Shown piece after piece: positions 8,700 to 62,589 of a stretch of DNA of 64,000 bases. The DNA lies in the NCBI GenBank assembly GCA_963738405.1, contig CAVTWJ010000004.1, positions 13,499 to 77,498 on the forward strand, read 5' to 3'. The number at the start of each line of letters is the position of its first letter. The stretch's first letter is position 1. Below the pieces are notes generated by a model that saw only the letters and a program-made list of their open reading frames with translations, searched no databases and had not been told where the DNA came from. The position numbers and the translations under genes were made by a program. The DNA comes from a candidate division FCPU426 bacterium (GTDB taxonomy: Bacteria; Oederibacteriota; Muellerivitia; Muellerivitales; Muellerivitaceae).

Positions 8700-8718
8700 A
8701 TTCTTCTCAAACAAAAAG

Positions 8719-9365: not shown

Positions 9366-9373
9366 GGCGCCAA

Positions 9374-9398
9374 GTGGGTATTAGTGGTAGGAAGTGGT
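9374..9398 (+). promoter_or_regulatory. Putative MraZ operator: three direct GTGG[GT] repeats at exact 10-bp spacing
   Basis: GTGGG(9374) GTGGT(9384) GTGGT(9394) just downstream of the -10; matches the known MraZ-box arrangement. Confidence 0.5.
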
Positions 9399-9444
9399 AG
9401 TTAATCAAAAAACCCATTAAATTAAGGCTTTTTGAGGGGTTTTA

Positions 9445-9903: not shown

Positions 9904-9913
9904 GAGGGTGGAA

Positions 9914-41315: not shown

Positions 41316-42320
41316 TTGGCTGCCTTCCTCCCTTTTCGGGGAACCCTCCATCCGCGCGGCTCCTTTGATTTGAATCTCACCCTTCTTTGCGGACAATGTT
41401 TCCGCTGGAAAAAATCAGCCGAGCCCGGGGTTTTGGAGGGGGTGGCCGGTGGGGCCTATTGGCGGCTTCGCCAGGAGGACTTGGTTATTCACTGGGAGTG
41501 CTCATCCCACGAAGTGAAAAAGGTACCGCCATCCGATTGGATTGCCGACTACCTGAATCTGGGCCAGGATCTGTCCGATTTTGAGAAAAATTTTCAGGAT
41601 CACCCCATCCTTTCCTTGCCCCTGCGACAGTTGGGAGGTTTGCGCTTGGTGAGACAGGAACCCTGGGAATGCGCCGTTTCTTATCTTTTTGCTCAAAGCC
41701 TTTCCGTCAAGGTGATTCAAAAGGCGCTGGATCGGTTTTGCGCGAAATTTGGAACAGAAATCTCCGAGGCGCCGGGCGCTTTTGCTTTTCCCGAACCGCG
41801 GGAAGTGAGCCTGTTAAACCCCGGGGAGCTCCGGCCCTACGCCAACAACAACCGGGCCCGGGCGGAACGGATCGTGAAATTGGCCCGGACCTTGGAATCC
41901 AGGGTTCTGACCCTGGAGCACCTGAAAACCATACCCTGCGATGAGGCGAGGGAAGCCTTGACGGGATTGGAAGGCATTGGGCCCAAAATCGCCGATTGCA
42001 TCCTTCTCTTTTCGCTGGACCATGGTTCGGCCTTTCCGGTGGATCGCTGGGTCTTGAGGGCCCTGAAACAACATTTTCCAGGGGTACGGTTTCTTCAGGC
42101 GGTCGGCTTGAATCCAACCCCCGCCCAATATCCCCGATTAGTCCAAAAGGCCCGAGCGGTCTTCGGCCCATGGTGCGGTTTGGCGAGCGAATATCTTTTT
42201 TTATATTTCAGGCTTTTGGAAGATCCGGCTCTGCGATTGGAACTGGGAAAAGAATTGGTGAGTCCCTTTTCAACCGTTATAGGGTTCAAGACTAAAAGGA
42301 AGGCTTTCAAAAAAGCCTGA
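41316..42320 (+). CDS. ogg: 8-oxoguanine DNA glycosylase/AP lyase (OGG1-type, HhH-GPD superfamily)
   Basis: N-terminal OGG domain (LNLTLLCGQCFRW); HhH-GPD motif GLEGIGPKIADCILLFSLDHGSAFPVDRWV with catalytic Lys and Asp; TTG start. Confidence 0.75.
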   Translation: MAAFLPFRGTLHPRGSFDLNLTLLCGQCFRWKKSAEPGVLEGVAGGAYWRLRQEDLVIHWECSSHEVKKVPPSDWIADYLNLGQDLSDFEKNFQDHPILSLPLRQLGGLRLVRQEPWECAVSYLFAQSLSVKVIQKALDRFCAKFGTEISEAPGAFAFPEPREVSLLNPGELRPYANNNRARAERIVKLARTLESRVLTLEHLKTIPCDEAREALTGLEGIGPKIADCILLFSLDHGSAFPVDRWVLRALKQHFPGVRFLQAVGLNPTPAQYPRLVQKARAVFGPWCGLASEYLFLYFRLLEDPALRLELGKELVSPFSTVIGFKTKRKAFKKA

Positions 42321-42363
42321 AAACCTATAAAATTTTTAACCAATTCATTTTAAGGACCCTCCA

Positions 42364-43776
42364 TTGCGTGCCCATCTTCTCATTGTTGACGATGAAGAAA
42401 GCGTTCGTGAATCTTTCCGTCTTGCTCTCCAGGAAAAATACGAGATGACTTTTGCCGAGAATGTTAAATCGGCATTAAAGGCGCTTAAACTTCGGGATTA
42501 TGACCTTTGCCTGCTTGATATTCTCCTGCCGGACGGGTCGGGAGTGGATCTTTTAAGGCAGGTGAAACGGAGGGACGAGACCCTAGACGCCATCATGGTG
42601 ACGGCGGTTCAGGGTGTGGATGTCGCATTGGACGCGATGAAACTTGGCGCTTACGATTACGTGACTAAACCCTATAAACTTGAAGAGTTGTATGCCGTCA
42701 TCCATCGCGCGCTTATGAAGCGTAAAATGGAACGGGAAAACCGTTACCTGAAAGAAGAAAGACAAAAACACCATCCCCTGGCCCTGTTGGGCTCCAGTCC
42801 GGAATTTCGTGAAGTCCTTAAAAAAATCGAGGGAATCGCCGCGGTGGAGGGTCCGGTTTTAATTACAGGGGAATCGGGATGCGGGCAGGAAGACATCGCC
42901 CGGGAAATTCATCGATTAAGCCCAAGATCCAACGGTCCCTTTGTCTGTTTGGATTGTTCCGACGTTCAGAGGGGACATTGGGACAGTGAACTTTTCGGCA
43001 TGGAGGGGGATGATTCGTATAAAAGAACTCCTCAATACGGCAAATTGGATTTTGCCCAAGGGGGGACTCTTTTTTTAAACCAAGTCGATTCCATCCCCGC
43101 CCTAATACAGGACAAGCTGGCCGACGCGCTAACGGAAAAGCAATTTACCCGGCTGGAAAGCAAAGTCGTTCAATCGTTGGATGTCCGGGTGATCGCTTCC
43201 TTCGAAATCGAATCGTCGGCCCACACCGCCGCACCGCCATTGCGAAAAGACCTTTTCCAAATATTGAAGATTTTCCCCTTGGCCATTCCGCCTTTAAGGG
43301 AAAGGGAAGGGGACCTGCCTGAACTCCTAAATCAATTCCTTAAAAACGCCAATCAAAGGGCCAATGTTCCGGTTAAAACGATTCATAAGGATGTCATCCA
43401 GCTTTTGGTGAAATATCCTTGGCCCGGAAATCTTCGGGAAATGGAAGCGGTTGTGGAAATGATGGTTCTCTTCGCGGGGAAAGAAAGCCTGGGAATGGAG
43501 GATGTTCCCCTTGATTTACTTGTAAAACAAATCGACCTGGCTCCGTCGAGGGAGGACGCTAAAATTTCCCTCAAAAGGGTCCGTCACCAGTTTGAAAGGC
43601 AATATATCCGGAATGTTTTGGAGCGCACCCGGGGAAACCAAACCCGGACCGCGGCAACTCTTGGACTTCATCGCAATACGCTCATCTGGAAATTGAAAGA
43701 ATTGGATCTTGAAGGTGAATATAAGCAGATTGTGAAGAAGAGGCGTGATCGGGGGATTGGTTTTAAGGACCTTTAA
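42364..43776 (+). CDS. NtrC-family response regulator (REC + AAA+ sigma54-interaction-like + Fis HTH) with a degenerate AAA+ core
   Basis: REC domain with acceptor Asp (CLLDILLPDGSG); Walker A GESGCGQE (Lys to Gln), Walker B LFLNQVD (DE to NQ), GAFTGA absent (ELFGMEGDDSYKRTP); C-terminal HTH TRTAATLGLHRNTLIWKLK. Confidence 0.8.
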   Translation: MRAHLLIVDDEESVRESFRLALQEKYEMTFAENVKSALKALKLRDYDLCLLDILLPDGSGVDLLRQVKRRDETLDAIMVTAVQGVDVALDAMKLGAYDYVTKPYKLEELYAVIHRALMKRKMERENRYLKEERQKHHPLALLGSSPEFREVLKKIEGIAAVEGPVLITGESGCGQEDIAREIHRLSPRSNGPFVCLDCSDVQRGHWDSELFGMEGDDSYKRTPQYGKLDFAQGGTLFLNQVDSIPALIQDKLADALTEKQFTRLESKVVQSLDVRVIASFEIESSAHTAAPPLRKDLFQILKIFPLAIPPLREREGDLPELLNQFLKNANQRANVPVKTIHKDVIQLLVKYPWPGNLREMEAVVEMMVLFAGKESLGMEDVPLDLLVKQIDLAPSREDAKISLKRVRHQFERQYIRNVLERTRGNQTRTAATLGLHRNTLIWKLKELDLEGEYKQIVKKRRDRGIGFKDL

Positions 43777-43779
43777 TTT

Positions 43780-44952
43780 ATGAGCGAATCTAAGATTCCG
43801 TCATCTTTCCCAGGAATGATCCCCCTGCGTTCCCTTTTGAAAACAGGGACTGACGACTCCCTTGATCTTGCCACCCTAAGCCGATACCTGGAAGAACGCT
43901 TTCATTACCCCCCGCTGACTTTTTTGCGAAAAACCCATGAGGGATTGCTGGGTTCGTGGAATGGCTCACCCGTGCGGATCGCCCCCTCCACCTCCCGCTA
44001 CCGGCAAATGGCGAGTTCTTTAAAAACCTCTAGGGGGGTGCGCTCAAACACAAAGCCCTGGGCTCTGTTATTTCCAGTTTTTGTCGGCCAGGAATGGGTG
44101 GGATGCCTGGCGGTCGGTCAAGACGCCGGGGGGAAAGAACTGTCGCGTCATTTCCTGGAATCCTGGATTCCCCTCCTCGTTTGGACACTGGGAATGGTTT
44201 TGGAAAACCGCCAGCTTGGGAAAATGCTTGAAAGGGCCGATCGTCAATCTTCTCTTGGGTTTCTTTCCGCCGGAGTATTTCATGAAATAAGAAATCCACT
44301 GACCGCCTTGAGCACCTTAATTCAATTACTGCCCCTGAAAAAAAATGACCCGGCCTTCATGGATTCTTTCCAAGCTCTCATGCTGAAAGAATTGGAACGC
44401 CTTGAGGTCTTGACCGATCAAAGTTTAAAGTTCGCCCGAACAGGCGGGAAGACCGTCGAGGACGTGGACTTACAGGAAACCCTTGAACGCATTCACCAGC
44501 TCATCCGGCCCAGTCTTGGCCGTAAAAAAATCCGTTTTTTATTTAGAGTTGAACAGGGCTTGAGCCTCAAGGTTGAACAGGCGCAATTTGAAAGCTTGGC
44601 GGTGAATCTGCTTAAAAACGCAATCAACGCCGTCGGAGGGAAAGGATTGGTTCAGGTGAGCGCGAAAAGGCTCCGGCCCGGCAAGGGCATTGTAAAATCC
44701 TGGGTTTGTCTTTCGGTCAAGGATGACGGCAAGGGTATCCCGTCAGGGGAAATTGAGAGGATTTTTGACCCCTATTTCACGACCCGAAATGGCGGAACGG
44801 GGTTGGGACTTGCCATTTGCCAGAGGATCATGGAAAACCACGGTGGACATCTTAAAGTAAAGAGTAAACGAAGGCAGGGCACTGTTTTTACAGCCTATTT
44901 TCCATCTCATTACAGGGTAAAAAATAAGGGGTTTTCCGATTTCCAACCCTAA
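43780..44952 (+). CDS. Cytoplasmic sensor histidine kinase (GAF-like N-terminal domain, HisKA, HATPase_c)
   Basis: H-box FHEIRNPLTAL; N, G1 and G2 boxes (NLLKNAINA, VKDDGKGI, GGTGLGLAICQRIM); no TM segments. Confidence 0.85.
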   Translation: MSESKIPSSFPGMIPLRSLLKTGTDDSLDLATLSRYLEERFHYPPLTFLRKTHEGLLGSWNGSPVRIAPSTSRYRQMASSLKTSRGVRSNTKPWALLFPVFVGQEWVGCLAVGQDAGGKELSRHFLESWIPLLVWTLGMVLENRQLGKMLERADRQSSLGFLSAGVFHEIRNPLTALSTLIQLLPLKKNDPAFMDSFQALMLKELERLEVLTDQSLKFARTGGKTVEDVDLQETLERIHQLIRPSLGRKKIRFLFRVEQGLSLKVEQAQFESLAVNLLKNAINAVGGKGLVQVSAKRLRPGKGIVKSWVCLSVKDDGKGIPSGEIERIFDPYFTTRNGGTGLGLAICQRIMENHGGHLKVKSKRRQGTVFTAYFPSHYRVKNKGFSDFQP

Positions 44953-45010
44953 GCCATTCTTTAATTTTTATAATTTTGGTATCCTTGGGTGACAAATTTG
45001 GAGGGGGCAG

Positions 45011-45634
45011 ATGGTCGATCAAAAAAAACGGATATTGATTCTTCAAATGAATCCCGTTTTTCTGAAAAAGCTCGTGAAATCATGTTCCTCACTCGGCGAT
45101 GTATTTACAGCGCAATCTCCCGAGGAGGCGTTAGAAGCGGTTTCACTTAACACCTTCGATCTGCTTCTTTTACAGTGGGAACTTATTTCTGCCGACAAAC
45201 CCCTGAATTTTGAAACCATCCGCCAATTTCAGCCCAAAAGCGCGAAAATAGCTCTTTTGCACATTTCGGATTTGTCCTCCGTGATATCGGCCATGAAAAC
45301 GGGCTTTACGGACATCATCTGGTTCGGGATTGAACGGATTCTTCTTAAACAAAAACTGGAAGATTCTTTAACCTTTAGTCCTATGACGGGTGTCAATCAC
45401 ACGCATATGACTCCTCTAGTGAAAGCCCTGACTCAAAGGAACCTGGATCAAAAAGCCACTCTTTTTCAGGCTCGGAAAGAATTTTCGAAACTGTTTTTGC
45501 AAATGATGATGAAACACAGCCGATTACGCCGACCCGAATTAGCAGCCCTTTTGGAGGTAAGTCCCCGAACCCTTCAGCGCCATTTGACCCTTTCGGGCAT
45601 TTTCAAATCCTCACTAACCCCCAAAAACCCTTGA
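45011..45634 (+). CDS. Pseudo-receiver domain protein with a C-terminal Fis-type HTH
   Basis: CheY-like fold (RILILQMN...FDLLLLQWEL) but the phospho-acceptor Asp position is Gln; C-terminal ELAALLEVSPRTLQRHL. Confidence 0.5.
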   Translation: MVDQKKRILILQMNPVFLKKLVKSCSSLGDVFTAQSPEEALEAVSLNTFDLLLLQWELISADKPLNFETIRQFQPKSAKIALLHISDLSSVISAMKTGFTDIIWFGIERILLKQKLEDSLTFSPMTGVNHTHMTPLVKALTQRNLDQKATLFQARKEFSKLFLQMMMKHSRLRRPELAALLEVSPRTLQRHLTLSGIFKSSLTPKNP

Positions 45635-45713
45635 AAAAGGTAGAAAATCCTTGCCTAAGGCCCGAATTCCCTGATATAAATGATATGGGAATTGCTATTC
45701 CAGGAGGTGGACG

Positions 45714-45989
45714 TTGACCAAGAGCGAATTGTTGGGATCATTAGCGAATGATACGGGCTTGAAGAAGAAAGACGTAGATAATGTGATGCAGGCCCTCAGA
45801 AATACCATCTACAAAACCTTGAAAACCGAGCATAAAATCAAATTGGATGGTTTGGGCGTGTTTCAGTTGAAAGACCGCAAAGCCCGGGTTGCCCGCAACC
45901 CCCGCACCGGCGAAATGGTGAATGTGCCCGCGAAAAAGGTAGTTAAATTCCGGGTTTTGAAAGATCTCAAAGAAGCCGTTTTGTCCTGA
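45714..45989 (+). CDS. HU/IHF-family nucleoid-associated DNA-binding protein
   Basis: 91 aa; MTKSELL..., GLGVFQLKDRKARVARNPRTGEMVNVPAKKVVKFR beta-arm; TTG start with GGAGGTGG SD. Confidence 0.85.
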   Translation: MTKSELLGSLANDTGLKKKDVDNVMQALRNTIYKTLKTEHKIKLDGLGVFQLKDRKARVARNPRTGEMVNVPAKKVVKFRVLKDLKEAVLS

Positions 45990-46005
45990 TTTGAAGCATT
46001 CTTTA

Positions 46006-46036
46006 AAGCACCCCGCTTTGCGGGGTGCTTTTTTTT
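46006..46036 (+). terminator. Rho-independent terminator after the HU gene
   Basis: GCACCCCGC-tttg-CGGGGTGC followed by T9. Confidence 0.75.
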
Positions 46037-46147
46037 TGCTCCTATATCTGAATGTTTTTTTGAATAAACCGTTATTTTTAAAGTATCTCTTTTAAAACCA
46101 TTTTCTGGAATACCAGTGGGAAATGGAATAATCTTCCCCTACAACCC

Positions 46148-48598
46148 ATGAAACCAAATTTCTTGCCCTCCAAGGGCAGCTTCCAAGACTCCCGCTCACT
46201 GGGGGTTCTTTTAATGGGTTTCTGGATTCTTTTTTTATTGATCCGTTTTTATTCCTCCCTGGAAAATCCATTTCATGCCCTATTTGCTTGGTTTTCCCTT
46301 CAAGGGATTCCTGACCGGCCATTGAACGAGAAAATAACCATTTGGATAGGCTTCGCCAAGTCGTTGTTTGTCGGTCTTTGGACCCTTTTATTGGCCTGGA
46401 GAGGAGGCCGGAAGATAAGGTTTTTTTTCCACAGATTTGAAAAATCTTATCCAATGGAAGCTTTTTTGGATTTAGCCTTGGGCTTCCTCATGCTCAATTG
46501 CTTCTGGATGGGCTTGGGTTTGACAGGCCTATGGTTTCCCGGATTATGGGCCCTCCTAACCCTGCCCGCTGGTTTATGGGTCATTTGGGATCTTCACCCC
46601 CTTTGGAAAAACCTTCCGCCCATACGGCTGTCCCAGTTGAAAGGTAAAGCGGGTATCGGAATCCTATTTTTATTGTCCCTGGTCTATACGGGAATCTTGT
46701 TCGCCCATGATCTGCTTCCTGAAACCTTCTATGACGCCCTCAATTATTTTTTGGGAATGCCGCAGGCCTGGCTGAACCGCCATGGGATATGCGACCTGCC
46801 GACCCAAATGCTATCGGGCTATTTTCACGGGGGTTCGCTTTTTTTCATGAACGCCCTGATCGCCGGCGACACGGGGGCCGCCAAGACGCTCAACGCTTTG
46901 GTGTTGGTGCTTTGCGTGGGGTTGGTTTGGAAATGGATGGAGGAATGGGGCGAGAAGGAAGGCGCGCTCTTTGCCGCCTTTTGGACCCTGACTTTCCCAC
47001 TGTTCTTCATCAACTCCTGGGCCGTGCGGGTGGACGGCCTGGTAACCTTCTTAACCCTTCTTGTTTTTTATTCCCTCTCGCGTCTTTGGCCATCCGGTGA
47101 AATGGCGGCTAAGGGAGCCCGGGAGGCCTATTGGGTCTTCATGGCTTGCGCCTTGGGCGGGGCGGCGATCGCGGTGAAGCCCACGGCCCTGGTAGGGCTG
47201 GCTGCGGTTTCGCTATTGCTTCTTTGGGATAAGGGGCCTATTTGGTTTTTCCGGCCCAAGCATTGGGTCTTCGCCGGGGTTTGCTTTCTTGTTTTCGCCG
47301 GGCCTTGGCTTCTTAAAAATTGGGTCTATGCGGGCAACCCCCTCTTTCCTTACGCTTCATCCCTTTTCGGCGGGCGTTCCCTAACTCCCGATCATTACGC
47401 CCGACTGCTTGGTGAAAACCACCAGTTTCTTCCCATGGATCACGGCCTTTTCTCTTATCTCACCCTGCCATGGCGGTTGACTATGCCCCAGGAGGGGGAG
47501 ACTCAATTTTTGGGGCCCCTGATCCTGGCTTTTCTGCCATTGTTATTTCTATTGAAACATTTGGACGGCCGCTGGAAACGATTGGCCTGGTTGACGGCCT
47601 TGTATTTGATATTAGGGCTCTGTTCCACCCACATGCTCCGTTTTTTAATGCCGGGGTTTCTCATGCTCTTCGTGCTGGTGGGGAAGGCCGTGGCCCATTC
47701 GGGAGAGATGGTTAAAAAAACAGCTTGGGCGGCACTGGGGCTATCCGCAGTTTTGAACCTGGGCTCCTACGCGGTTTTAAGTTCTCGTTATTTTGACGGC
47801 GCTGGGGTTTGGTCGGGCCGGGAAACGCCGGAAGCCTACCTCGACCGGAAAATGATCAATTCTTATGAGCCGCTGGCCCGCTGGTGTGACTTTCTTCCTT
47901 CCGAATCCAAGGTGCTGGTGGTGGGGGATGCGAGGGGCCAATATTATCCCCGTCCTTTTCTCGCCAATTCGGCCTTTGATATGCCCTTTTTCGAGGAAGC
48001 CGCCAAGGAAGAGAAGAGCCCCCAGGGAATCCTAAAGCGCCTGAAAGAAGCCGGGATCGACGCCGTGGTCCTCAACCTACCGGAAGGCATGAGATTGAGC
48101 CAGCAATACGGCCTCTATCATCTCACTCCGGACCAATGGAAAAAGTTGGACCTCTTTTTTAAAGAAGGTCTAAAACCAGTCTTTATCAGGCCTACCCTGC
48201 AAGCCTATTTGGTGGGTGATTCACTTGGCGCCCCTGATTTAAAGGCTCCTTTTGATCCCTTCACCTTTTTTGACGCCGCGACTTTTGAATTTACCGAAGC
48301 CCTCCAAGCGGGTGACCTGAAAAAGGCAGAGGGATTGAGGCTTGAGGTATTTAACCTTTTCCCCCGGGATGCCTATTGGCGGGAGCAATTGGCCCGATTG
48401 GACGAAGCGGAAGGAGTTCCCCAGCAAGCGTTGAAAGATTACAAGCAAGCGGACCAACTGGGGTTTTTGTCCCCGAATGGCTATGAAAGCTGGAAAACCC
48501 TTAGCCGAAAGTGGGGAAGGGGCAGGGACTTAGCCTTGATCACGAAAAGGGAGAAGGCTTGGGCTTCCCAGAAACAAACCGCGGGGGCTCAACCTTGA
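46148..48598 (+). CDS. Large polytopic membrane protein, GT-C-fold glycosyltransferase-like (ArnT/PMT/YfhO-like), paralog A
   Basis: 816 aa, >12 TM helices in the N-terminal ~500 aa, then a soluble C-terminal domain; conserved block ETFYDALNYFLG..GG.LFFMNALIAG shared with the downstream paralog. Confidence 0.55.
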   Translation: MKPNFLPSKGSFQDSRSLGVLLMGFWILFLLIRFYSSLENPFHALFAWFSLQGIPDRPLNEKITIWIGFAKSLFVGLWTLLLAWRGGRKIRFFFHRFEKSYPMEAFLDLALGFLMLNCFWMGLGLTGLWFPGLWALLTLPAGLWVIWDLHPLWKNLPPIRLSQLKGKAGIGILFLLSLVYTGILFAHDLLPETFYDALNYFLGMPQAWLNRHGICDLPTQMLSGYFHGGSLFFMNALIAGDTGAAKTLNALVLVLCVGLVWKWMEEWGEKEGALFAAFWTLTFPLFFINSWAVRVDGLVTFLTLLVFYSLSRLWPSGEMAAKGAREAYWVFMACALGGAAIAVKPTALVGLAAVSLLLLWDKGPIWFFRPKHWVFAGVCFLVFAGPWLLKNWVYAGNPLFPYASSLFGGRSLTPDHYARLLGENHQFLPMDHGLFSYLTLPWRLTMPQEGETQFLGPLILAFLPLLFLLKHLDGRWKRLAWLTALYLILGLCSTHMLRFLMPGFLMLFVLVGKAVAHSGEMVKKTAWAALGLSAVLNLGSYAVLSSRYFDGAGVWSGRETPEAYLDRKMINSYEPLARWCDFLPSESKVLVVGDARGQYYPRPFLANSAFDMPFFEEAAKEEKSPQGILKRLKEAGIDAVVLNLPEGMRLSQQYGLYHLTPDQWKKLDLFFKEGLKPVFIRPTLQAYLVGDSLGAPDLKAPFDPFTFFDAATFEFTEALQAGDLKKAEGLRLEVFNLFPRDAYWREQLARLDEAEGVPQQALKDYKQADQLGFLSPNGYESWKTLSRKWGRGRDLALITKREKAWASQKQTAGAQP

Positions 48599-48618
48599 AT
48601 CCGCGTCCTTCTTCCGCC

Positions 48619-54112: not shown

Positions 54113-56755
54113 TTAAGCTTTCGCCGGTAATTCAAGGGTGAACTCGGTAAATTTCCCCTTTTCACTCCTCGCCGAGATCCTTCCCCCTTGCTCCCGCAAA
54201 ATGCGGTAGCAAATACTCAAACCCAATCCCATGCCCTGTCCCACGTCTTTGGTCGTAAAAAAGGGATCAAAGATTTTATCCAGGTTTTCGGGGTTGATTC
54301 CTGAACCGTTGTCCCGGACCTGGATGAACACCTTCCCGTTTTCAAAACGGCTCTTAATCCATATCAGGGGCTCTTCGCCATCGAAATTCTTTTCCTTCAG
54401 GGCGTCGGAGGAATTTTGAATCAAATTCACGAAAACATGGATCATCTTGTTCCGGTCGGCCAGGACCTGCTGGTCTTCCGGCACTTCGATTTCGACCTTG
54501 ACCCTATCCTTTAATTCGTGGCCCAGAAAGCGTAAGGCGTTGGAAAGAATTTCTTTTAAGCCGATCAGGTCCACGCTTCCCCCTGCCTTGGGGTGGGTGA
54601 AGCTGCGAAGATCGGACACGATGCGCTGAACCCGGTTCACTCCGTCCTCGATATCGGTGACGGTTTCAACGAACTTTTCCCTTTCTTGATCGGGCAGGCG
54701 GTCTTTTTTCGCTTTCAACAGATAGAGGGCTTGCACGGCGTAATTGAGAGGGTTGTTGATCTCATGAATAATACCGGCGCTGAGACGCCCAAGGGAAGCC
54801 ATCTTTTCGTTTTGGACCAATTGCCCTTCCGTTTCCTTCAGCTGTTCGAGAGTCGTTTCTAGTGCACTTTTTTGTCGGATCAACTCCCGCTGAAATTGAT
54901 GGGATTCGATCAAATTTTTGACTCGTACATGCAGTTCGGTGTTGGAAAAAGGTTTTGTCAAAAAGTCGCTCGCGCCGGCGTCCAAGGCCGAGAATTTGGT
55001 GTCCTCGTCGGCCCGGGCGGTCAAGAGCACGACAGGAATGGCTTGGGTGGAAACTTGTTTTTTCAATTCCCGGCATGCCTGGACGCCGTCTTTCTCGGGC
55101 ATCATCATGTCCAGCAGGATAAGATCGGGCAGGAACTGCTTTGCCTTTTCCACCGCCTGGTTTCCATCCACGGCCTCGATGATCTCGTAATGTTTTTCCA
55201 AGCGCGATTTGATGAACCTCAGCATGTCCGGCTCATCGTCCGCCACCAGCACCTTTTTCTTTTGGCTATTTCCGTAGTTGTCCGTGCGGAGGGACTCCGA
55301 AAGGGGCGTCAGGGTGCTGAAAAGCTCGGCTCGCCTGTAAAGATTGGTAAGCCATTCCTCGTCCTGGGCAGATTCGGCCAACATTCCACCGGGTTCCCCG
55401 GCTTTTTCGGAGACCGGAGAGGTCTTGGCCGCCTCGAAGGGAATCCGGATCGTCATGGTCGTGCCCGCTCCCAGACGGCTTTGAGCCGTGACAGAGCCCC
55501 CTTGGGCTTCTGTTAATTCCTTCACCAGGGCAAGGCCGATGCCCGTTCCCTGGTACTTCCTTTGGGCCGAGGAATCGGCTTGCCAGAAACGGTCGAAGAT
55601 AAAGGGAAGATTTTCCTCGGAAATCCCCATGCCCGTATCCTTGATCACTAATACCAGTTGGGAATCTTCTTTATTCGCGGTCAATTCCACCCGCCCCCCG
55701 CTGGGGGTGAACTTCAAGGCGTTAAAAAGGAGATTGAGGATGATTTTTTCCATTTTGTTCTGATCCAGCATGACGGCGCCAATGGATTCGTGGACGCGGG
55801 TGGAGAGGTTGATCCGCTTGTCCTTCGCCGTGCCCTGAATGGACTGGATCAAACCCTTCACGAAGAGTTCCAAATTCACTGGTTCTTTTTTGACCTCCAT
55901 GCGGCCCGATTCCAGCTTGGCCAGGTCCAGAAGGTCATTGATCAGTTTCAATAAACGCATTGCGTTGTTTTCCATGGTGGACAGGATGTCCCTGGATTCC
56001 TCATCCAACAGATGCTTTTTTTGATTTCTCAGGGCCTGGAGGGGCGAAACGAGAAGCGTTAAGGGCGTTCGGAGTTCATGGCTGATATTGGCGAAGAAAC
56101 GGCTTTTCATTTGATCCATCTCGATCAGTTTTTGATTGGTTTCCGCAAGTTTTTTTCGGTTCTGGTCCAGCTCATAACGGGTCGTGAACTCCCGGATGCG
56201 CAGGCGGTTAGTGAAATAACTTCCAACGACCGCGAAAGTGGAAGTCAGAATGAGGAAATAGGTATTGTTGAAAAAAAGGCCACCGAAGGAAACCGGCCCG
56301 TGGGCAAAGCAGGCGGTTAAGTACATCAGAAAGGTCAGCCCGGAAAAAATGAGCGTTTCCTGGTAGGTCCAGGGAGAGACCAGGCAAAAGGCCACCAAAA
56401 CCACGTTGAGCCCGGCGTAATAGGGGGAGTGGGCTCCTTCCGAAGCGTAAATCATCCAGGCGATGGCGCCCTGGGGCACCATGAGCATGGCGATGAAGAA
56501 AACCCGGTCCAATCGCGCGGCCCAGGGGCGGTAATAAAGGATTAAAAATATGCCCACCAATAAGGAAGAATACAATCGGAGCTCTAAAAAATAAGGAACC
56601 AACGAGGGATAAACATTCATGTCCAACGATATGCCCGCCGGCATCCCAACCATCGCGAAGATACATACGATTTTAAATAAACGGGACCTTTCCGCCCGGT
56701 TGTAATCCTCATAGGCTTTTTGAACTTCAGGCTGTTCCAGCAGTTTTTCTTTCAT
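54113..56755 (-). CDS. Multidomain hybrid sensor histidine kinase (7-8 TM sensor, HisKA+HATPase, REC, second HisKA+HATPase)
   Basis: N-terminal polytopic domain; H-box 1 [10 protein letters not shown]; HATPase 1 [17 protein letters not shown]; [25 protein letters not shown]; H-box 2 [10 protein letters not shown]; HATPase 2 [17 protein letters not shown]. Confidence 0.85.
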
Positions 56756-58167
56756 TTGGGTTTCCTCACCTCAAGAAAAATATTGATGCCTGTGTCTTCC
56801 AATGTGATTTCGCAAGCACCCTCGGGGGCACCTTCGGGTTTAAGGATGCCCATTTGTTCCCGATTTCGATAGATCAAATGCCATTCCATGAAACTTTCCA
56901 TCGTGTTAATCAGAGGATTGGTGGGCGTTACGTTCGTCGCCAGCAGCAGCCCACCCGGAGCCAGAAGGGCATAGAAATAATCCATCAGTTTTTTGCAAAT
57001 CCGGTCCTCCAGGTAATCGAAAAGGCCTGCGACATAGATGAAATCATAGACCCCTTCCTTTGGGCCTTCGTAGGGTTTGAAAGTTTCTTTAAGGATATGG
57101 TTGACGGATTTCTTGACCATTTTGATGGGCGTCCCACGGCGGTGTCGGCTCTTGATGTCATCCAAAATCTTTCCAGTGAATTCCAGGGTCTCGTCGTTGA
57201 AGTCATACAGGGTAAAGTCCGCCTTTTCGCAATAATCGTCGTGGGCCAGGAAGTTTTGGACTTCTTTGGCTGGGCCGCAGGCCATGTCCAGAACCCGAAG
57301 GGTGCGGTTTTCCCGGATCGCCCGCATGGTTTCCTCGTTCAACCTTTGGATGAGGTGCTTGATGCGGTTGCGGTGGGCTTCGCAGGGCGGCGAATTCACA
57401 AACCAGAGGTTCACGATCTTGGCGAAAAGGGTGCTTCCCTCCAGGGGGTCCCTCAGCATCATATTGACCATTTCATAATCGCCGGCGTACCCCAGCGGTT
57501 TTTGAAAACTGCGGTAAACAAAGGGCGAGCAAAGAATGATGGGGTGCATTTGCCGGCGGCTGTAGGAACGGTGGATGGATTGAAGCTCGGGGGGTATCCC
57601 CGCGATGGTCTCCTCAAATCGCTCGAAGAGCGATGAAACAGTCGGGGCGATGGGGTCCTTCAATTGAAGGATGACGTCCCGTTCAGTCTGGTTCCGGTTC
57701 CCCGAGGGTTCGGACCGGATGCTCAATTCCACCTGTTCCAGCCAGCGGCGCATATCCATCAAGAAAGTCTGCATATCGGCGATCACCACCTTGAGGTTGT
57801 CCTCGATGTGGTGGATCTTGTCCCATTCTTTCAGAAATTCGGAAAATTCGCTCTGAAGCTTGTCTTTCTGGTGGATGGAGGAAAAGATATCAACGTCCAG
57901 CCAATTGTCCTCCAGGGTGCATTCGCAAACCAGGAGGATGCCGGTGTTCAACAGGTTGCTCACGACCGCGCGGCCGGAATAAACCATCCGTTCATTCATC
58001 ACCATCTTAAAATCGGTCAGGACCTCAGAGAGCTGGAGAATGCTGTAAGGGTTGTAAACCTCGAAGACGACCGAATAACGGGTCAGCCGCAGGAGGGTGG
58101 CCCGCACCTCGGCTCCCTGGCTGTTGCGGCAGTGGATAAAAGTGTCTCTACCCGTCGAGATGGACAT
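56752..58167 (-). CDS. Two-domain SAM-dependent methyltransferase (PhcB-like: N-terminal domain of unknown function plus C-terminal class I MTase)
   Basis: MTase motif I LRVLDMACGPAKEV, acidic-loop FTLYDFNDE, motif II/III YDFIYVAGLFDYLED; start refined to MSISTGRD to avoid the 110-nt overlap with the PPTase. Confidence 0.75.
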   Translation of the reverse strand: MSISTGRDTFIHCRNSQGAEVRATLLRLTRYSVVFEVYNPYSILQLSEVLTDFKMVMNERMVYSGRAVVSNLLNTGILLVCECTLEDNWLDVDIFSSIHQKDKLQSEFSEFLKEWDKIHHIEDNLKVVIADMQTFLMDMRRWLEQVELSIRSEPSGNRNQTERDVILQLKDPIAPTVSSLFERFEETIAGIPPELQSIHRSYSRRQMHPIILCSPFVYRSFQKPLGYAGDYEMVNMMLRDPLEGSTLFAKIVNLWFVNSPPCEAHRNRIKHLIQRLNEETMRAIRENRTLRVLDMACGPAKEVQNFLAHDDYCEKADFTLYDFNDETLEFTGKILDDIKSRHRRGTPIKMVKKSVNHILKETFKPYEGPKEGVYDFIYVAGLFDYLEDRICKKLMDYFYALLAPGGLLLATNVTPTNPLINTMESFMEWHLIYRNREQMGILKPEGAPEGACEITLEDTGINIFLEVRKPK

Positions 58168-58184
58168 GTCGCTTTTTTTCCGAT

Positions 58185-59021
58185 CTAAGATGGGGTCTTT
58201 GAATATCGAAACTCCAGAGTTTCCCGCAGTTTCTTTTCGTCCCAGTGGAATTTTTGATAAATCGGGCTGGGACCTTTCCGTGAAGAAGCCAGCCAATTTT
58301 CATTCCCGGGCCCGGTGATTTCACCGAGGATCGTCGCGTGACTCAAACAATAGCGGTCCTCCAACACGAATTGGGAAAATAGTTCGACAGAACCCCGGCG
58401 GATTCGTCCTTCCGGAGGAAAGGAAACCGTGAAAGAACCGTCATCCCCGCCCCATCCCAGGCCCATCGCCTTCAGAAATGCTTCTTTTAGGGTAAAGATT
58501 CTCAGAAATACCAAAGGGCGTAAGGCTCGCGGCTGCTTCTCCAGATATTCTTTTTCCTCCGTGGAAAAATAACGGTCCGCGATCAGCCGCCAATCTCTAT
58601 TTTTCGACTCCATAAGCGCTAGTTCCACATCGATTCCAACAGGAAAAGCTGAAACCGTCAGGGCCACTAGGCCTTCCGTATGGGAAAGATTGAAATGTAA
58701 GTCCCGGCTTCTCAAAGCGGGTTTACCGGAGGGACTTAGGATGAATTCTAAATCTATCATTTCCCGGCCAGTGTAAAAAGAAAGCAAGTGACGGGTCAGG
58801 ATGCGGGAAAAAAGAAATTCCTTCTTGGCGTAATGCAAACTCAGGAAATGAAAATCGCGATTTTCGTCAGGGCTCAGAAAATGAATCAGGAATTCGTCCG
58901 GATGTTGAGTGGGTTTGGAATCAAATTCAAGAAGGTGAATGTGGATCGCATTGAGAGATAGAGCTTCGGGGCTCTCTGTCTTGCGGTCCATCGCAAGGTT
59001 TGGGTTGGGGAGGGTCATCAT
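58185..59021 (-). CDS. 4'-phosphopantetheinyl transferase (Sfp/EntD family)
   Basis: PPTase motifs FNLSHTEG, GIDVE, FTLKEAFLKAMG. Confidence 0.8.
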   Translation of the reverse strand: MMTLPNPNLAMDRKTESPEALSLNAIHIHLLEFDSKPTQHPDEFLIHFLSPDENRDFHFLSLHYAKKEFLFSRILTRHLLSFYTGREMIDLEFILSPSGKPALRSRDLHFNLSHTEGLVALTVSAFPVGIDVELALMESKNRDWRLIADRYFSTEEKEYLEKQPRALRPLVFLRIFTLKEAFLKAMGLGWGGDDGSFTVSFPPEGRIRRGSVELFSQFVLEDRYCLSHATILGEITGPGNENWLASSRKGPSPIYQKFHWDEKKLRETLEFRYSKTPS

Positions 59022-59737
59022 CCGGCGCCGCCGTCCATCACCATGACACTTCCATTGAGGTATTCCGGGGCTTCCTCCGCTAGAAAATAGACAACGCGGG
59101 CGACCTCCTTCGGTTCACAGAAACGTTTCAAGGGAACGACTTGAAGAAGGGCTTCCTTCGCCTGCGGGGAAAGCTTATCGATCATGGGGGTGGTCACCCC
59201 TGCCGGCGCCACCACATTGGCGATGACCCCGTAGGGTCCGCATTCCTTGGCCAAGGCCTTAGTAAAACCGATGATGCCGGCCTTGGAGGCTGAATAGTTG
59301 GTCTGACCCGGCAATCCATGGATTCCGGAAACGGAAGAAAGATTAATGATCCGGCCGTTCTTTTTTTTCATCATGTCGGTGGCGAAGCGGCGGGTCAGGT
59401 GAAAAACGCCTGTCAGGTTGGTGTTCAAAACATCCGTCCAATCCTCATCTTTCATAGCGAAAAGGGGTTTGTCCCGGGTGATTCCGGCGTTGTTCACGAG
59501 TACGTCCACATTCTTTTCTTCGTCTAAAACCGCTTTGCAGAAACGATCGCAAGCTTCCCGGTCCGCCACATCTAGATGATGGGCCCGGGTCTTTCCGTCA
59601 AAGCGTCCCTCGATCTCACGGGCTGAAGCCTCATTGGAATGGAACGTGAAATGAACCTTCCATCCTGCGGCCGCGAAGGTTTCCACCAGACTTTTCCCGA
59701 TACCGGAGGAACCGCCCGAAATAACCACCTTTTTCAT
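59018..59737 (-). CDS. fabG: SDR-family 3-oxoacyl-ACP reductase (FabG-like ketoreductase)
   Basis: GGSSGIGKS Rossmann motif, NNAG, catalytic S...YSASK. Confidence 0.85.
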   Translation of the reverse strand: MKKVVISGGSSGIGKSLVETFAAAGWKVHFTFHSNEASAREIEGRFDGKTRAHHLDVADREACDRFCKAVLDEEKNVDVLVNNAGITRDKPLFAMKDEDWTDVLNTNLTGVFHLTRRFATDMMKKKNGRIINLSSVSGIHGLPGQTNYSASKAGIIGFTKALAKECGPYGVIANVVAPAGVTTPMIDKLSPQAKEALLQVVPLKRFCEPKEVARVVYFLAEEAPEYLNGSVMVMDGGAG

Positions 59738-60183
59738 GAAAGCCTCAATTTTCCAATAAGAAATTTTCCGGAAGCCACTTCATTTCCATCGACATAACCC
59801 TTTCCCTCGAAGATCCGGTTCGGCGGGACCGTTTTGGTCAGCTTCATATGAATTTCCAGCTGATCCCCCGGAAAAAGGGGCTTGAGGAACCGAAATTCCA
59901 ATACCGCCCCAATCGCGTCAAAGACCCCATCCACCGCCGACCCTTCCGTCAAACGGATCAGGAGGGTGGCGGCCTGGGCGAAGCATTCGATGGTTAATAC
60001 CCCCGGAAATACCGGATAGTCCGGAAAATGGCCCTGGAAATGGATGTCGTTGACGGTGATGTTTTTAAGCGTGTGAAGTTCCTTTCCCTTTTCCCAGGAT
60101 AAAACCCTATCCACCATGAACAATGGAAAGCGCTGTTTTAAAAAGGACAGGTCTGGAATTTCCTCCATGGGCTCAAGCGGCAT
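59734..60183 (-). CDS. FabZ/FabA-like 3-hydroxyacyl-ACP dehydratase (hotdog fold)
   Basis: HFQGHFPDYPVFPGVLTIECFAQA (catalytic His and Glu); start could be M at 60183 or M at 60168 (MEEIPD, aligning with FabZ N-termini). Confidence 0.8.
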   Translation of the reverse strand: MPLEPMEEIPDLSFLKQRFPLFMVDRVLSWEKGKELHTLKNITVNDIHFQGHFPDYPVFPGVLTIECFAQAATLLIRLTEGSAVDGVFDAIGAVLEFRFLKPLFPGDQLEIHMKLTKTVPPNRIFEGKGYVDGNEVASGKFLIGKLRLS

Positions 60184-60421
60184 GAACCATCCCTTCAATT
60201 ACTTCCGACGCCGTATTTACTGTCCCCATTTTGATCAGCTGGTCGGGATCGATCATAACGTTGAACTCGGTTTCCAGCTTGGCCAGGAATTCCAGAGCCC
60301 TCATGGAATCATACTTGGCCATTTCCTTGAAGGGCTTCTCATCCGCAACGTCAGCCGGAGGCACGTCGAACATCCCGGCGATAATTTCCCGAATCTTCGA
60401 TTTGATTTCAGCGGCTTCCAT
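60173..60421 (-). CDS. Acyl carrier protein
   Basis: 82 aa, phosphopantetheine-attachment motif YDSMRALEF (DSM-type serine). Confidence 0.85.
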   Translation of the reverse strand: MEAAEIKSKIREIIAGMFDVPPADVADEKPFKEMAKYDSMRALEFLAKLETEFNVMIDPDQLIKMGTVNTASEVIEGMVHAA

Positions 60422-61330
60422 TTATTGGCTCCTTTTTTTTCGAGCGATTTTAACCAGCGATATCCTTTTTTCTTCCGCCGCGACGGCCCCGAGAACCCCC
60501 AAATGATTGGGGGAGGATAAGAAATGTTCCAGGGAAATCCTTCCGTTGAGGCCCAATTCCAGGATAGAGGAATTGGGAACAAAACGGAAAACTCCTTCCG
60601 GCAGCAGTTTTTCCACCGGAGTTGCCATCGGGAGTCCGATCCATTCGGCCTCGTCCAGAAGGCTTTTCAAAATATTCCCCGAGCCTGCCGGCAAGGTTCC
60701 GTCCGGCTTCCATTGCGCCGAGGCGTAATCCTCAACTTGTAGAAAGCCCTCGTCATCCTCCGAACCCGACGCCCGCATCAAAAAGGCTCCTTCCTGGATG
60801 GTAAGGCTCGGGTTTCCTTTGAGGCCCGCCTTTTTAAGAAATTCCGGAATCTTTTCGGCCGCGCCCACCAGGCAGCTTTGAAAAAGGCCGCCATTCATAC
60901 CTTCCCATGCGAAGCCTAAAGCGTCGATAAAAGAGGTTCCGCCGTTGGTCAAGGTAATGTTCGGCCCCTTGAGCTGCAGCCAAATGCCAATCCGGCTTCC
61001 CGCCGCGTTGGCAACGGTGTTTGGAAAATCCATGGGATTGACGGTATTCGGCCCCTTTATAAGGGCCTGACGGTCGAATTCCACTGAGCTTTCAAAGGCG
61101 CCGAAGGCCGTTCCCAGGATGACCGCGTCGGTCGGGTTTGGAACGGGAGGATTGTCGCCCCGTCGGAAAATCCGGCCTGCGGCGATTCCCGCCATCAGGG
61201 AAAGGGTGTCGATGTATTTGGGCGATTGATCCGGGAAAAGGGCCTGAAATTCTCCGGGTAAATCCTCCATTTTAAGCCCCTCCTGACCCAGTAGGACAGA
61301 GGCCTTCCGCTGGAGGACGAGAGGTTTCAT
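60422..61330 (-). CDS. Ketosynthase-like partner without an active-site Cys (chain-length-factor / KS-beta-like)
   Basis: 302 aa thiolase-fold-like with no ACxSG cysteine motif; translationally coupled (ATGA) to the upstream KS. Confidence 0.65.
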   Translation of the reverse strand: MKPLVLQRKASVLLGQEGLKMEDLPGEFQALFPDQSPKYIDTLSLMAGIAAGRIFRRGDNPPVPNPTDAVILGTAFGAFESSVEFDRQALIKGPNTVNPMDFPNTVANAAGSRIGIWLQLKGPNITLTNGGTSFIDALGFAWEGMNGGLFQSCLVGAAEKIPEFLKKAGLKGNPSLTIQEGAFLMRASGSEDDEGFLQVEDYASAQWKPDGTLPAGSGNILKSLLDEAEWIGLPMATPVEKLLPEGVFRFVPNSSILELGLNGRISLEHFLSSPNHLGVLGAVAAEEKRISLVKIARKKRSQ

Positions 61331-62589
61331 GAGGAAGCCTCCGGTTTTATCAAGACTAAGCAGGAGGTATTGCCGCCAAAGGCAAAGGAATTGGAAAGGG
61401 CCACCCGGCCCTGGAAGGCCCTGGCCTGGTTGGGAACGCAGTCCGCGATACAGTTTTCGTCGGGAGTATCCCAGTTGATGGTGGGGAGAAGAATTCCTTT
61501 TTCCAGGGAGAGGCAGGTCATGACAGCCTCAATAGCGCTGGCCGCGCCCATGGTGTGCCCGATCATGGACTTGATGGAATTCACCGGGACGGGCCGTTCG
61601 GTGCCGAGCGCTTTTTTGATAGCGGTGGATTCGGTCTTGTCGTTGGCGGGGGTTCCGGTGCCGTGGGCTGAAACACAATCCACATCGGCGGCCTTTAGGC
61701 CCGACTGGTCGAGCGCCCGCTCGATGCTGGCCAGGGCGCCTTCCCCTTCCGGGTGGGGGGAAGTCATGTGATAGGCGTCCATCCCCAGTCCGTAGCCGCC
61801 CACCTCGCAATAGATATGGGCGCCCCTGGCCCTGGCCCTCTGTTCCTCCTCGAGCAAAAGAACACCCACTCCCTCGCTGACTACCAGCCCTTTCCGGTTG
61901 GCGGAGAAGGGGCGGCATTTGTCGGGGGTAAGGGAAAGCAGGCGGTTGAAACCGGTAAAGGCAATCCTTGAGAAGGGGTCCACTCCTCCGCATAGGGCCG
62001 CGTCCAAACGGCCTTGCCGGATCTGCTCAAGTCCCCACCCAATGGCGTAATTCCCGGAGGCACAGGCGTTGGAAAATACAAGCGACCGTCCTCCCAGTTT
62101 CAAAAAATTCAAAACGGAAGAGGCAATACTGGAAGCCTGAACCCGGTGAAAGGAGGCTGGTTCCATTTCGGAGTTATCTGTTTGGATTTGGGTTTTGGAG
62201 AGGCGCTCCGTCAGCTGAATTTCACCCATCGTTGTCCCAAAGAAACAGCCGAATCGAATTGAATCCAAGTCGCCCGGCGCAAGACCGGCGTCCTGTAGGG
62301 TTTCTTGAGAGGCAAGGATGGAAAGGATCGAAGCCATTTCATACCGGCCTGGGTTTTCTCGTTCAAAATTTTCCAAACGTTGGCGGTCTTTGATCTCGCC
62401 GCCGATTTTGACCCGGTAAGGGGAAGGGTCCATTAACGTCAGGGGCGCTACTCCGGACTGGCCCTCTGCCATGGCCGTCCATACCGAAGCGACCCCGTCT
62501 CCCAATGGACAGATCACACCCAAACCGGTTACAACGGCTCTTTTGTGTTTCATCCCGGGCTCCTGTTTCTTTGCGACTGGCGAGTACAA
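61327..62589 (-). CDS. Beta-ketoacyl-ACP synthase (KAS II/FabF-like, KS-alpha)
   Basis: Catalytic triad context SNACASGNYAIG, HGTGTPANDKTE, IGHTMGAASAIEA; 420 aa; first gene of the minus-strand operon. Confidence 0.9.
   Translation of the reverse strand: MYSPVAKKQEPGMKHKRAVVTGLGVICPLGDGVASVWTAMAEGQSGVAPLTLMDPSPYRVKIGGEIKDRQRLENFERENPGRYEMASILSILASQETLQDAGLAPGDLDSIRFGCFFGTTMGEIQLTERLSKTQIQTDNSEMEPASFHRVQASSIASSVLNFLKLGGRSLVFSNACASGNYAIGWGLEQIRQGRLDAALCGGVDPFSRIAFTGFNRLLSLTPDKCRPFSANRKGLVVSEGVGVLLLEEEQRARARGAHIYCEVGGYGLGMDAYHMTSPHPEGEGALASIERALDQSGLKAADVDCVSAHGTGTPANDKTESTAIKKALGTERPVPVNSIKSMIGHTMGAASAIEAVMTCLSLEKGILLPTINWDTPDENCIADCVPNQARAFQGRVALSNSFAFGGNTSCLVLIKPEASS

Follow-up and report, generated by a model that had tools for sequence, protein, structure and literature searches.

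A conserved NtrC-type response regulator with a predicted pseudo-ATPase core, its intact sensor kinase and a receiver–helix-turn-helix partner in candidate division FCPU426

Atypical enhancer-binding proteins (EBPs) are an established class in which TyrR, HupR, HsfA, PhhR and NtrX are listed together with VpsR, a regulator that is without GAFTGA, has ND at Walker B and no detectable ATPase activity, and activates sigma-70 RNA polymerase; members of the class have been proposed as an evolutionary link from sigma-54 to sigma-70 activation (PMC6158489). The NtrC proteins of R. capsulatus and Caulobacter also act at sigma-70 promoters, and the R. capsulatus protein has to bind ATP though it need not hydrolyse it (bioRxiv 10.1101/2023.06.06.543975). 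Here we analyse a locus from FCPU426, an uncultivated and seldom sampled phylum about which the literature holds almost nothing, in a 64,000-nucleotide stretch of contig CAVTWJ010000004.1 (assembly GCA_963738405.1; hereafter the window). Positions 42364-45634 of the window hold three co-directional open reading frames (ORFs), at the same coordinates as in an initial annotation: an NtrC-type response regulator (RR; 42364-43776, + strand, 470 aa, TTG start), a histidine kinase (HK; 43780-44952, +, 390 aa, or 378 aa according to one gene caller that placed the start 36 nt downstream) and a protein with a receiver fold and a helix-turn-helix (HTH), here called P3 (45011-45634, +, 207 aa). No database names are on record for the window proteins. 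We find that RR and its FCPU426 relatives belong with the atypical EBPs, as a more extreme relative of VpsR and NtrX and not as a new kind of system.

RR has the full domain complement of an NtrC-type protein. Pfam assigns it Response_reg (1e-25), Sigma54_activat (PF00158; 1.7e-34 over residues 142-306, with a cut-off of 20.2 bits), AAA_lid_14 (1.3e-20) and HTH_8 (6e-13), and its nearest NCBIfam models are NtrX, NtrC and AtoC, all of which it matches far below the equivalog cut-off (312.7 bits for NtrX, where 600 are required). To place its motifs we used a HMMER alignment with Aquifex aeolicus NtrC1 (4l4u/1ny5, E ~1e-70), which had high posterior probability at all motif columns. The receiver (REC; residues 1-120, 42364..42723, +) aligns with D9/D10, D52 (42517-42519), T80 and K102 all intact, and the HTH_8 match places a Fis-type HTH at residues 409-450 (43588..43713, +), whose recognition region, QTRTAATLGLHRNTLIWKLKE, is almost invariant among orthologues of 47 to 100% overall identity; in both respects the initial annotation was right. 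Between these two domains, the AAA+ domain (residues 141-390, 42784..43533, +) keeps its framework and has its catalytic residues replaced. Walker A reads GESGCGQE (42868..42891, +; GESGVGKE in NtrC1), with Gln175 aligned to the NtrC1 Lys, and Walker B reads LFLNQVD (43069..43089, +; LFLDEIG in NtrC1), with Asn239-Gln240 for Asp-Glu at the true NtrC1 position, both as first described. The GAFTGA motif had been called missing: it is indeed lost, but the L1 loop that should carry it is unchanged in length (RR ELFGMEGDDSYK against NtrC1 ELFGYEKGAFTGA, EKGAFTGA becoming EGDDSYK), so the motif has been substituted, by the acidic and basic residues of GDDSYK (43006..43023, +), and not deleted. Three further losses had gone unremarked, namely the Asn 'glutamate switch' (FVALN to FVCLD, D197), sensor I (AATN to ASFE) and the R-finger (YYRL to FQIL, I300). 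Across the clade the sensor II Arg (GNLRE) varies, but the window RR has kept it. Every substitution falls at the true motif position and none outside it, and the AAA+ module is accordingly predicted from its sequence to be catalytically dead and unable to contact sigma-54.

The same losses define a clade. A database search with RR returned a continuous series of orthologues (~77 clusters spanning 44-100% identity, nearly all of 470 aa), after which the next matches are ordinary bacterial EBPs (bEBPs) at ≤41% identity in which GESGTGKE, GAFTGA, DE, ATN and YYRL return abruptly. Within the series the Walker A Lys is gone from ~75 of 77 members, two being ambiguous, and is replaced by Q, V, I, L, A, T or S; Gln stands for the Walker B Glu in 86%; the GAFTGA position has the consensus G[DE]E.K.K or a three-residue deletion; and sensor I and the R-finger are replaced, all as tabulated motif by motif against the window RR. 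Because the same substitutions recur in ~77 clusters and canonical motifs reappear abruptly in the next-best matches, the losses are not attributable to chance. The receiver motifs VDDEES, CLLDIMLP, IMVTAL and ITKPY are essentially invariant, and residues of the fold framework are retained (GE.G.G, AR.IH, ELFG, GK.E.A..GT.FL, D.R, PLR.R..DI and Y.WPGN..E). Identity within the clade exceeds that among canonical bEBPs for the receiver (0.75 versus 0.59), the HTH (0.84 versus 0.60), the lid (0.65 versus 0.59) and the C-terminal tail (0.66 versus 0.19), and falls below it only for the AAA+ alpha/beta core (0.48 versus 0.69).

Selection on the gene follows the same division. In the two least-saturated orthologue pairs, dN/dS was 0.18 and 0.13 for the AAA+ core, 0.13 and 0.075 for the lid, 0.08 and 0.035 for the receiver, and 0 and 0.026 for the HTH, with gene-wide values of 0.07-0.11. 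The core values of 0.13-0.18 show that it remains under purifying selection: the apparently dead core is relaxed two- to four-fold yet clearly still selected, as befits a pseudo-enzyme domain and not a decaying one. Taken together, the in-register losses, the three additional ones and the clade-wide selection support the original proposal that RR would neither hydrolyse ATP nor remodel the sigma-54 holoenzyme, and would hence regulate independently of sigma-54. Clade members have nevertheless been named 'sigma-54 dependent transcriptional regulator' by NCBI and 'NtrC family response regulator AtoC' by JGI (P0034, P0041 and P0043), and the sigma-54 dependence that these names imply is very probably wrong for the clade. 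Separately, a 459-aa relative of ~40% identity (P0080) combines a degenerate AAA+ domain (GEVGSESE, LFLDQAD) with a degenerate receiver (VGLDPT, VLTEVRLA) and may be a doubly 'dead' bEBP-like protein of another lineage.

Set beside the characterised proteins, RR most resembles VpsR in function-relevant features and NtrX and NtrC1 in sequence. VpsR, which is among the Protein Data Bank (PDB) sequence matches of RR (7v2b, 5.7e-29), shares with it the order REC, AAA+ and HTH, the absence of GAFTGA and a degenerate Walker B (ND in VpsR, NQ in RR). It is only distantly related in sequence and is not an orthologue; its documented losses are GAFTGA and Walker B, whereas the FCPU426 clade is also without the Walker A Lys, sensor I, the Asn switch and the R-finger, and VpsR depends on cyclic di-GMP (c-di-GMP) and has no known adjacent cognate kinase, whereas RR is accompanied by an intact kinase and by P3. 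NtrX of Brucella, Caulobacter and other Alphaproteobacteria, the best NCBIfam match and third-best PDB match (5m7n, 9e-68), has the same domain order, a replaced or shortened GAFTGA loop and a partner kinase, and acts independently of sigma-54 as a repressor. Unlike RR, in which both Walker motifs are lost, it still has GPSGAGKE at Walker A and DE at Walker B in our alignment, and it crystallises with ATP and ADP; it also belongs to a different lineage and gene neighbourhood, and RR lies far under the NtrX equivalog cut-off. The NtrC proteins of R. capsulatus and Caulobacter are, like RR, GAFTGA-less NtrC-type regulators, and theirs are phosphorylated on the receiver Asp, but they still require nucleotide, and in them the L1 loop is deleted instead of substituted at the same length. 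NtrC1 is the closest solved structure, with the same domain order and length and a receiver and linker that align well, and differs in having all catalytic and GAFTGA motifs and in activating the sigma-54 holoenzyme. We also considered PexR of M. xanthus as an analogue and rejected it, as it is a canonical ATP-binding, GAFTGA-containing bEBP. The simultaneous loss of six elements in the FCPU426 clade goes beyond any documented example that we found.

In contrast to the AAA+ core of RR, the adjacent kinase is intact. HK matches HisKA and HATPase_c in Pfam; its small alpha/beta sensor spans about residues 30-115 and is followed by a signalling helix, by DHp (with H168 at 44281-44283) and by CA. 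The window protein has an intact H168 and intact N, G1, F and G2 boxes, and the motifs HEIRNPL, NA, DxGxG, F and GxGLGL are present in all 14 loci that carry the gene. The initial annotation had described a soluble, GAF-like kinase. That it is a soluble sensor kinase is confirmed, as no transmembrane segment was found in HK; the GAF-like sensor did not find the same support, since Pfam returned no family for residues 1-156, even with the threshold relaxed to E≤10. In an AlphaFold2 (AF2) model built on a 17-sequence alignment (mean pLDDT 70, ~80-85 in the sensor core), the sensor has the topology a-b-b-b-a-b-b followed by a long signalling helix, and full-length Foldseek searches returned PAS/LOV-kinase chimeras, ThkA and a bacteriophytochrome, with PAS/LOV and phytochrome equally good and with DHp-CA dominating the match. 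A GAF-like sensor is plausible but not distinguishable from PAS, and the term fits only loosely, for a small alpha/beta sensor in the cytoplasm.

A natural variant bears on the relation of the kinase to the receiver of RR. L020 is the only genome in which RR and P3 are both present and the kinase gene between them has been deleted. Its regulator (8495-9907, the same as P0040) carries Glu at the acceptor position (CLLEISLP) and an altered acidic pocket (VDDGEN), a natural phosphomimetic-like variant; all kinase-containing loci keep the RR acceptor Asp. Kinase loss together with Asp-to-Glu replacement is the pattern expected if HK normally phosphorylates D52.

P3 is an NtrC-type regulator without the central domain. 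Its Pfam matches lie under the cut-offs (Response_reg, 7.6e-4; HTH_8, E=0.055), and the fold assignment comes from an AF2 model (mean pLDDT 75.6) in which residues 6-121 form a clean (beta-alpha)5 receiver (pLDDT ~85-90), followed by a disordered linker and four helices ending in an HTH. The HTH lies at about residues 174-194, with modelled helices at 174-180 and 185-194 (pLDDT ~70) and the conserved motif LAxLLxVSPRTLxRYL. Foldseek matches are receivers (TMt, a structural similarity score, 0.85 to DrrB), the best full-length match being 3rqi, which is also a profile match and which we take to be a small regulator of REC and Fis-type HTH (ActR/RegA/PrrA-type architecture). P3 resembles such small regulators in its length class (~185-205 aa) and in placing a short helical HTH module after the receiver; it differs from them in falling under the Pfam cut-offs for both domains and in being without the conserved Lys family-wide. 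With the P3 family profile, the best match is the NtrC1 receiver (1.8e-10), and the C-terminus aligns weakly and in register with residues 402-442 of the NtrC1 DNA-binding domain. A recent duplication of RR was rejected as the origin of P3, direct BLASTP giving 25% identity over the receiver (E=2e-4); judged by their shared best match, the NtrC1 receiver, the two appear to be of the same sub-type and not a recent paralogue pair. The family is small, with ~22 full-length relatives before generic receivers in a profile search of 1.84 billion representative proteins.

Receiver-fold regulators are known that keep the fold and an output domain, have the acceptor replaced and are presumed to be phosphorylation-independent. 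The initial annotation had placed P3 here, with a CheY-like fold and Gln for the acceptor Asp. Both points stand for the window protein, in which Q55 (45173-45175) takes the place of the acceptor Asp in alignments with NtrC1 and with the adjacent RR and the acidic pair is replaced by Q12-M13-N14, but not for the family: Asp-less P3 is confined to the sub-clade of the window (window, L007-L009 and P0122-P0130), and most FCPU426 orthologues keep acceptor and acidic pair (ILILEDD...LLLLDW...ALFT). The loss is a recent one, within one sub-clade of an otherwise Asp-containing family, so that the states before and after it can be compared in nature. The Lys at the end of beta5 is absent from the whole family (DIIWFGIE or DILWAAQE aligned to VTKPY). 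As most P3 orthologues keep EDD...D, the ancestral system would have comprised one kinase and two potentially phosphorylatable regulators, and judging from these residues the same network probably has P3 as its second substrate in most FCPU426 genomes. P3 is also the most persistent partner. L020 and L006 have kept P3 without the kinase, and in L009 (8907-10973), where RR and HK are both precisely lost and OGG, the 8-oxoguanine glycosylase gene that otherwise precedes RR, is followed by P3 and the HU gene, an Asp-less P3 is kept, which suggests that P3 is able to work alone. The description of a 'partly dead' set fits the RR AAA+ domain and the window P3, the kinase being intact, and should not be taken to mean degeneration: the three genes form a stable module that is maintained by selection and lies among further signalling and biosynthetic genes.

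We then asked from which promoters this module and its neighbours are read. A sigma-70-like promoter candidate, TTCAAA-16-TAAAAT (42306..42333, +), precedes RR, as judged by consensus match and cross-genome conservation, and an AAGGA ribosome-binding site lies 8 nt 5' of the TTG start. By intergenic comparison and consensus scan, the promoter is much better conserved in orthologous loci, as CTTTATAAA-N17-TATAAT, the window version being weaker, and the same approach found no terminator inside the three genes. The HU gene (45714-45989, +) has its own conserved promoter and leader; comparison of 45640-45713 of the window with the P3-HU gaps of L002-L020 gives a strongly conserved promoter, AAAAACCCTT.AAAAA...TTGCCA-N17-TATAAA. 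A strong, conserved intrinsic terminator follows the gene (46005-46040, +; AAAGCACCCCGC-TTT-GCGGGGTGCTTT and T9). HU is therefore a separate transcription unit that marks the 3' boundary of RR-HK-P3, and the RR promoter, the lack of an internal terminator and the separate promoter and terminator of HU together define the three genes as a unit of their own. An inverted repeat in the HU leader abuts the Shine-Dalgarno sequence, with arms that vary by sub-clade (GGATTT..AAATCC or GGAAT....ATTCC) while keeping their symmetry; the stability of this hairpin is not exceptional (z=0.74). Rfam returned nothing at the gathering threshold at the locus; a sub-threshold match at 45962-46040 to the Burkholderia small RNA ncS54 (28.8 bits, with 43 needed) is most likely driven by the HU terminator and without meaning.

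Signs of sigma-54 use were sought in the same DNA. Sites of the -24/-12 type (TGGCAC-N5-TTGCW, with ≤2 mismatches) were not enriched in the window (15 against 26.6 expected), and a six-frame scan for GAFTGA, ELFGHEKG, GESGxGKE and RpoN-box peptides found none in 339 kb of the window and related loci, a small and redundant sample. TATAAT-type, sigma-70-like promoters were found at the RR, HU and first ketosynthase (KS1) genes. In a search for shared operators, we compared the OGG-RR, P3-HU, HU-GT1 and KS1-upstream intergenic regions across genomes (GT1 being a glycosyltransferase-like gene). A palindrome, GAAAGNCTTT, lies over the RR -35 region and is single-copy. Upstream of KS1 (-; 62705-62716 and 62741-62760 of the window, 10931-10943 of L008) are a 20-nt block, GACAAAAAAGCAACAGTTTT, and TTTAACGTTATG with the palindrome TAACGTTA; both are identical in the window and L008 despite ~70% protein identity, and each is single-copy. 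These two blocks are candidate operator or promoter elements of KS1. We rejected the conserved blocks as evidence for an RR operator, each being single-copy and none assignable to RR.

On this evidence we hold, with moderate confidence, that RR is a phosphorylation-controlled DNA-binding regulator that acts independently of ATP and of sigma-54, descended from a sigma-54 EBP and having an AAA+ domain that is now a pseudo-ATPase. With its small alpha/beta domain the cytoplasmic HK would detect a signal from inside the cell; it would then autophosphorylate H168 and, as the intact motifs and the L020 co-variation suggest, pass the phosphoryl group to D52 of RR. By analogy with NtrC1, NtrX and VpsR, phosphorylation would alter the packing of the receiver on the dead AAA+ domain, of which only a scaffold for dimerisation or oligomerisation is left. 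The invariant Fis-type HTH would, to judge by its conservation, bind a conserved DNA site, and promoters of the housekeeping, sigma-70-type sigma factor would be activated or repressed with neither ATP hydrolysis nor sigma-54. We infer such ATP- and sigma-54-free action from the loss of every required motif, the TATAAT-type promoters in the locus and the precedents cited above. P3 of the window's sub-clade would now be an Asp-less, phosphorylation-independent DNA-binding partner. The likely targets, the weakest step, would be a repeatedly co-located ketosynthase, acyl carrier protein (ACP) and methyltransferase cluster and the envelope glycosyltransferase genes.

Several observations weigh against this account. 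The inactivity of the ATPase, the lost nucleotide binding, the phosphotransfer and the sigma-70 dependence are all deduced from sequence, and the L020 co-variation is a single event. Caulobacter NtrC, though GAFTGA-less, cannot dispense with K178 of Walker A and D235 of Walker B (bioRxiv 10.1101/2023.06.06.543975), so nucleotide independence is not general in the GAFTGA-less class. The P-loop glycines (GE.G.G.E) and the AR.IH that follows Walker A are 87-100% conserved in the clade though the Lys is lost, and these residues could represent a residual ligand pocket instead of a pure scaffold. The shared-operator search, finally, gave only single-copy blocks at the KS1 promoter that are not attributable to RR.

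The conserved P-loop is the starting point of an alternative in which the degenerate pocket has been repurposed for c-di-GMP, as in FleQ and VpsR, or for another phosphate-bearing ligand whose binding is combined with phosphorylation. VpsR, the closest functional analogue, needs c-di-GMP, and FleQ, in work cited within PMC6158489, binds it at the Walker A region, and conservation of the glycines and of the Arg and His after Walker A at 87-100% without the catalytic Lys would fit such a use. The same residues are conserved in all bEBPs, however, where they are equally well explained as fold framework, and the conserved neighbourhood holds no diguanylate cyclase or phosphodiesterase; we regard ligand gating as unlikely, if worth bearing in mind. 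The dead AAA+ domain might also serve as a poison subunit, entering mixed rings with a canonical bEBP encoded elsewhere and damping a sigma-54 regulon when phosphorylated. A partner interface would need just the framework and lid that are conserved here under purifying selection, and MphX provides an example of a truncated, bEBP-like protein that works as an anti-activator (PMC3063778). Yet a pure poison subunit has no need of the HTH, which is the most conserved part of RR (0.84 identity, dN/dS ~0), the R-finger and other trans-acting interface residues are lost too, and the 339 kb of lineage DNA, small sample as it is, has no canonical bEBP signature. An anti-activator of this kind has, in our estimate, a slim chance of being correct.

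That RR is still a sigma-54 activator, with non-canonical residues for hydrolysis and sigma-54 contact, we consider very improbable. Substitutions affect six independent functional elements together (the Walker A Lys, the Walker B acids, GAFTGA, the Asn switch, sensor I and the R-finger), in bEBPs that have been studied single substitutions at these positions abolish function, such as K178A and D235A in Caulobacter NtrC (bioRxiv 10.1101/2023.06.06.543975), and the Walker A Lys position is variable and often hydrophobic (V/I/L/A) in the clade; the window also has no -24/-12 enrichment, and the RR promoter is of the TATAAT type. Set against this are the strong Sigma54_activat homology (1.7e-34), the sensor II Arg kept in the window RR and the database names of clade members. 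Scarcely credible, finally, is the view that the three genes are non-functional relics of a two-component system in decay. Two of the three proteins have indeed lost catalytic or acceptor residues, and there are genomes from which the kinase (L020), or RR along with it (L009), has been deleted; but RR orthologues are full-length and indel-poor in ~77 clusters down to 44% identity, gene-wide dN/dS is 0.07-0.11 with the receiver and HTH near-invariant, and synteny and promoter are conserved. Decay of RR into a pseudogene was accordingly rejected on conservation and dN/dS.

Having weighed these readings, we return to ATP- and sigma-54-independent regulation by RR, and to the genes that it might control. 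When the window proteins were mapped onto 16 related loci, the order OGG-RR-HK-P3-HU-GT1-GT2 was found to be kept in at least 12 FCPU426 genomes. GT1 (46148-48598, +) and GT2 (48511-50943, +) are syntenic PMT_2-type membrane glycosyltransferase-like proteins, and a syntenic Wzy_C/TPR protein (50936-52825, +) lies downstream of them; the three genes (46148-52825) are a possible candidate regulon. As listed, the GT1 and GT2 ORFs overlap by 88 nt (48511-48598, with a GTG start for GT2 at 48511), and the true GT2 start is probably further downstream. Two other ORFs of the window drew our attention. A 911-aa protein (36152-38887, +) with a lipoprotein-like N-terminus, long Thr/Pro/Ser-rich 'TPT/TxT' low-complexity repeats and no Pfam match may be a heavily glycosylated surface protein, which would be of note near PMT_2-type glycosyltransferases. 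Directly 5' of OGG is a hydrophobic 107-aa ORF (40982-41305, +) that has coding-level conservation in all FCPU426 loci and matches no family. Two metagenome-assembled genomes, L017 and L018, are labelled 'uncultured proteobacterium' and have a complete FCPU426-type locus, so the label is probably a taxonomic error.

Beyond the glycosyltransferase genes, on the opposite strand, lie two further signalling proteins, a 421-aa REC-HATPase protein (52835-54100, -) and an 880-aa hybrid kinase (54113-56755, -), whose orthologues travel with the RR-HK-P3 trio in other genomes. They adjoin a type-II FAS/PKS-like biosynthetic cluster (56752..62589, -) that encodes a methyltransferase, a phosphopantetheinyl transferase (PPTase), a ketoreductase (KR), a FabA/ApeI-like dehydratase, an ACP and two ketosynthases, to which relatives of the cluster add an amine-oxidase-type FAD enzyme. 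Orthologues of the cluster and kinases, at 54-82% identity, adjoin the trio in five different arrangements: directly upstream and co-directional in L004 and L005, directly downstream of RR in L006, convergent immediately after P3 in L007, a few kb downstream in L008, and convergent ~7 kb downstream of P3 in the window. Because the linkage survives repeated rearrangement, it points to a functional connection: RR and P3 may regulate the cluster, the additional kinases may signal to these two regulators, or both may hold. The neighbourhood evidence makes the cluster a candidate target of these regulators, and its product may be aryl-polyene-like.

A broader hypothesis, which we put forward tentatively and think on balance doubtful as a whole, is that RR represents a phylum-wide, nucleotide-free regulator. 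Its AAA+ ring would be a phosphorylation-gated scaffold or a re-purposed ligand pocket, and, with the paralogous, AAA+-less P3 and three kinases, it would control a ketosynthase/ACP pathway of lipid or polyene type and envelope glycosylation from sigma-70-type promoters, the sub-clade of the window capturing P3 as it turns phosphorylation-independent.

The characterised range of GAFTGA-less regulators runs from Caulobacter NtrC, which needs Walker A and Walker B, through R. capsulatus NtrC, which needs ATP binding only, to VpsR, which needs no ATP. The FCPU426 clade sits past the VpsR end of this range, all nucleotide-handling and sigma-54-contact elements being gone under purifying selection across a phylum-level radiation, and it thus offers a natural test of what an AAA+ domain contributes to a transcription factor without catalysis, whether as scaffold, allosteric relay or ligand pocket. 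The 'sigma-54-dependent' labels applied by annotation pipelines are probably wrong and would inflate predictions of the FCPU426 sigma-54 regulon. The natural variants, with a kinase deletion accompanied by an Asp-to-Glu acceptor and with P3 proteins that have or are without the Asp, are ready-made genetic controls. If our reading is true, the series of Asp-containing P3, Asp-less P3, kinase-less RR with Asp-to-Glu, and loci without RR and HK would show two-component proteins in the course of becoming pseudo-signalling proteins, and the recurrent linkage to ketosynthase, ACP and methyltransferase genes provides a concrete candidate regulon in an uncultivated phylum.

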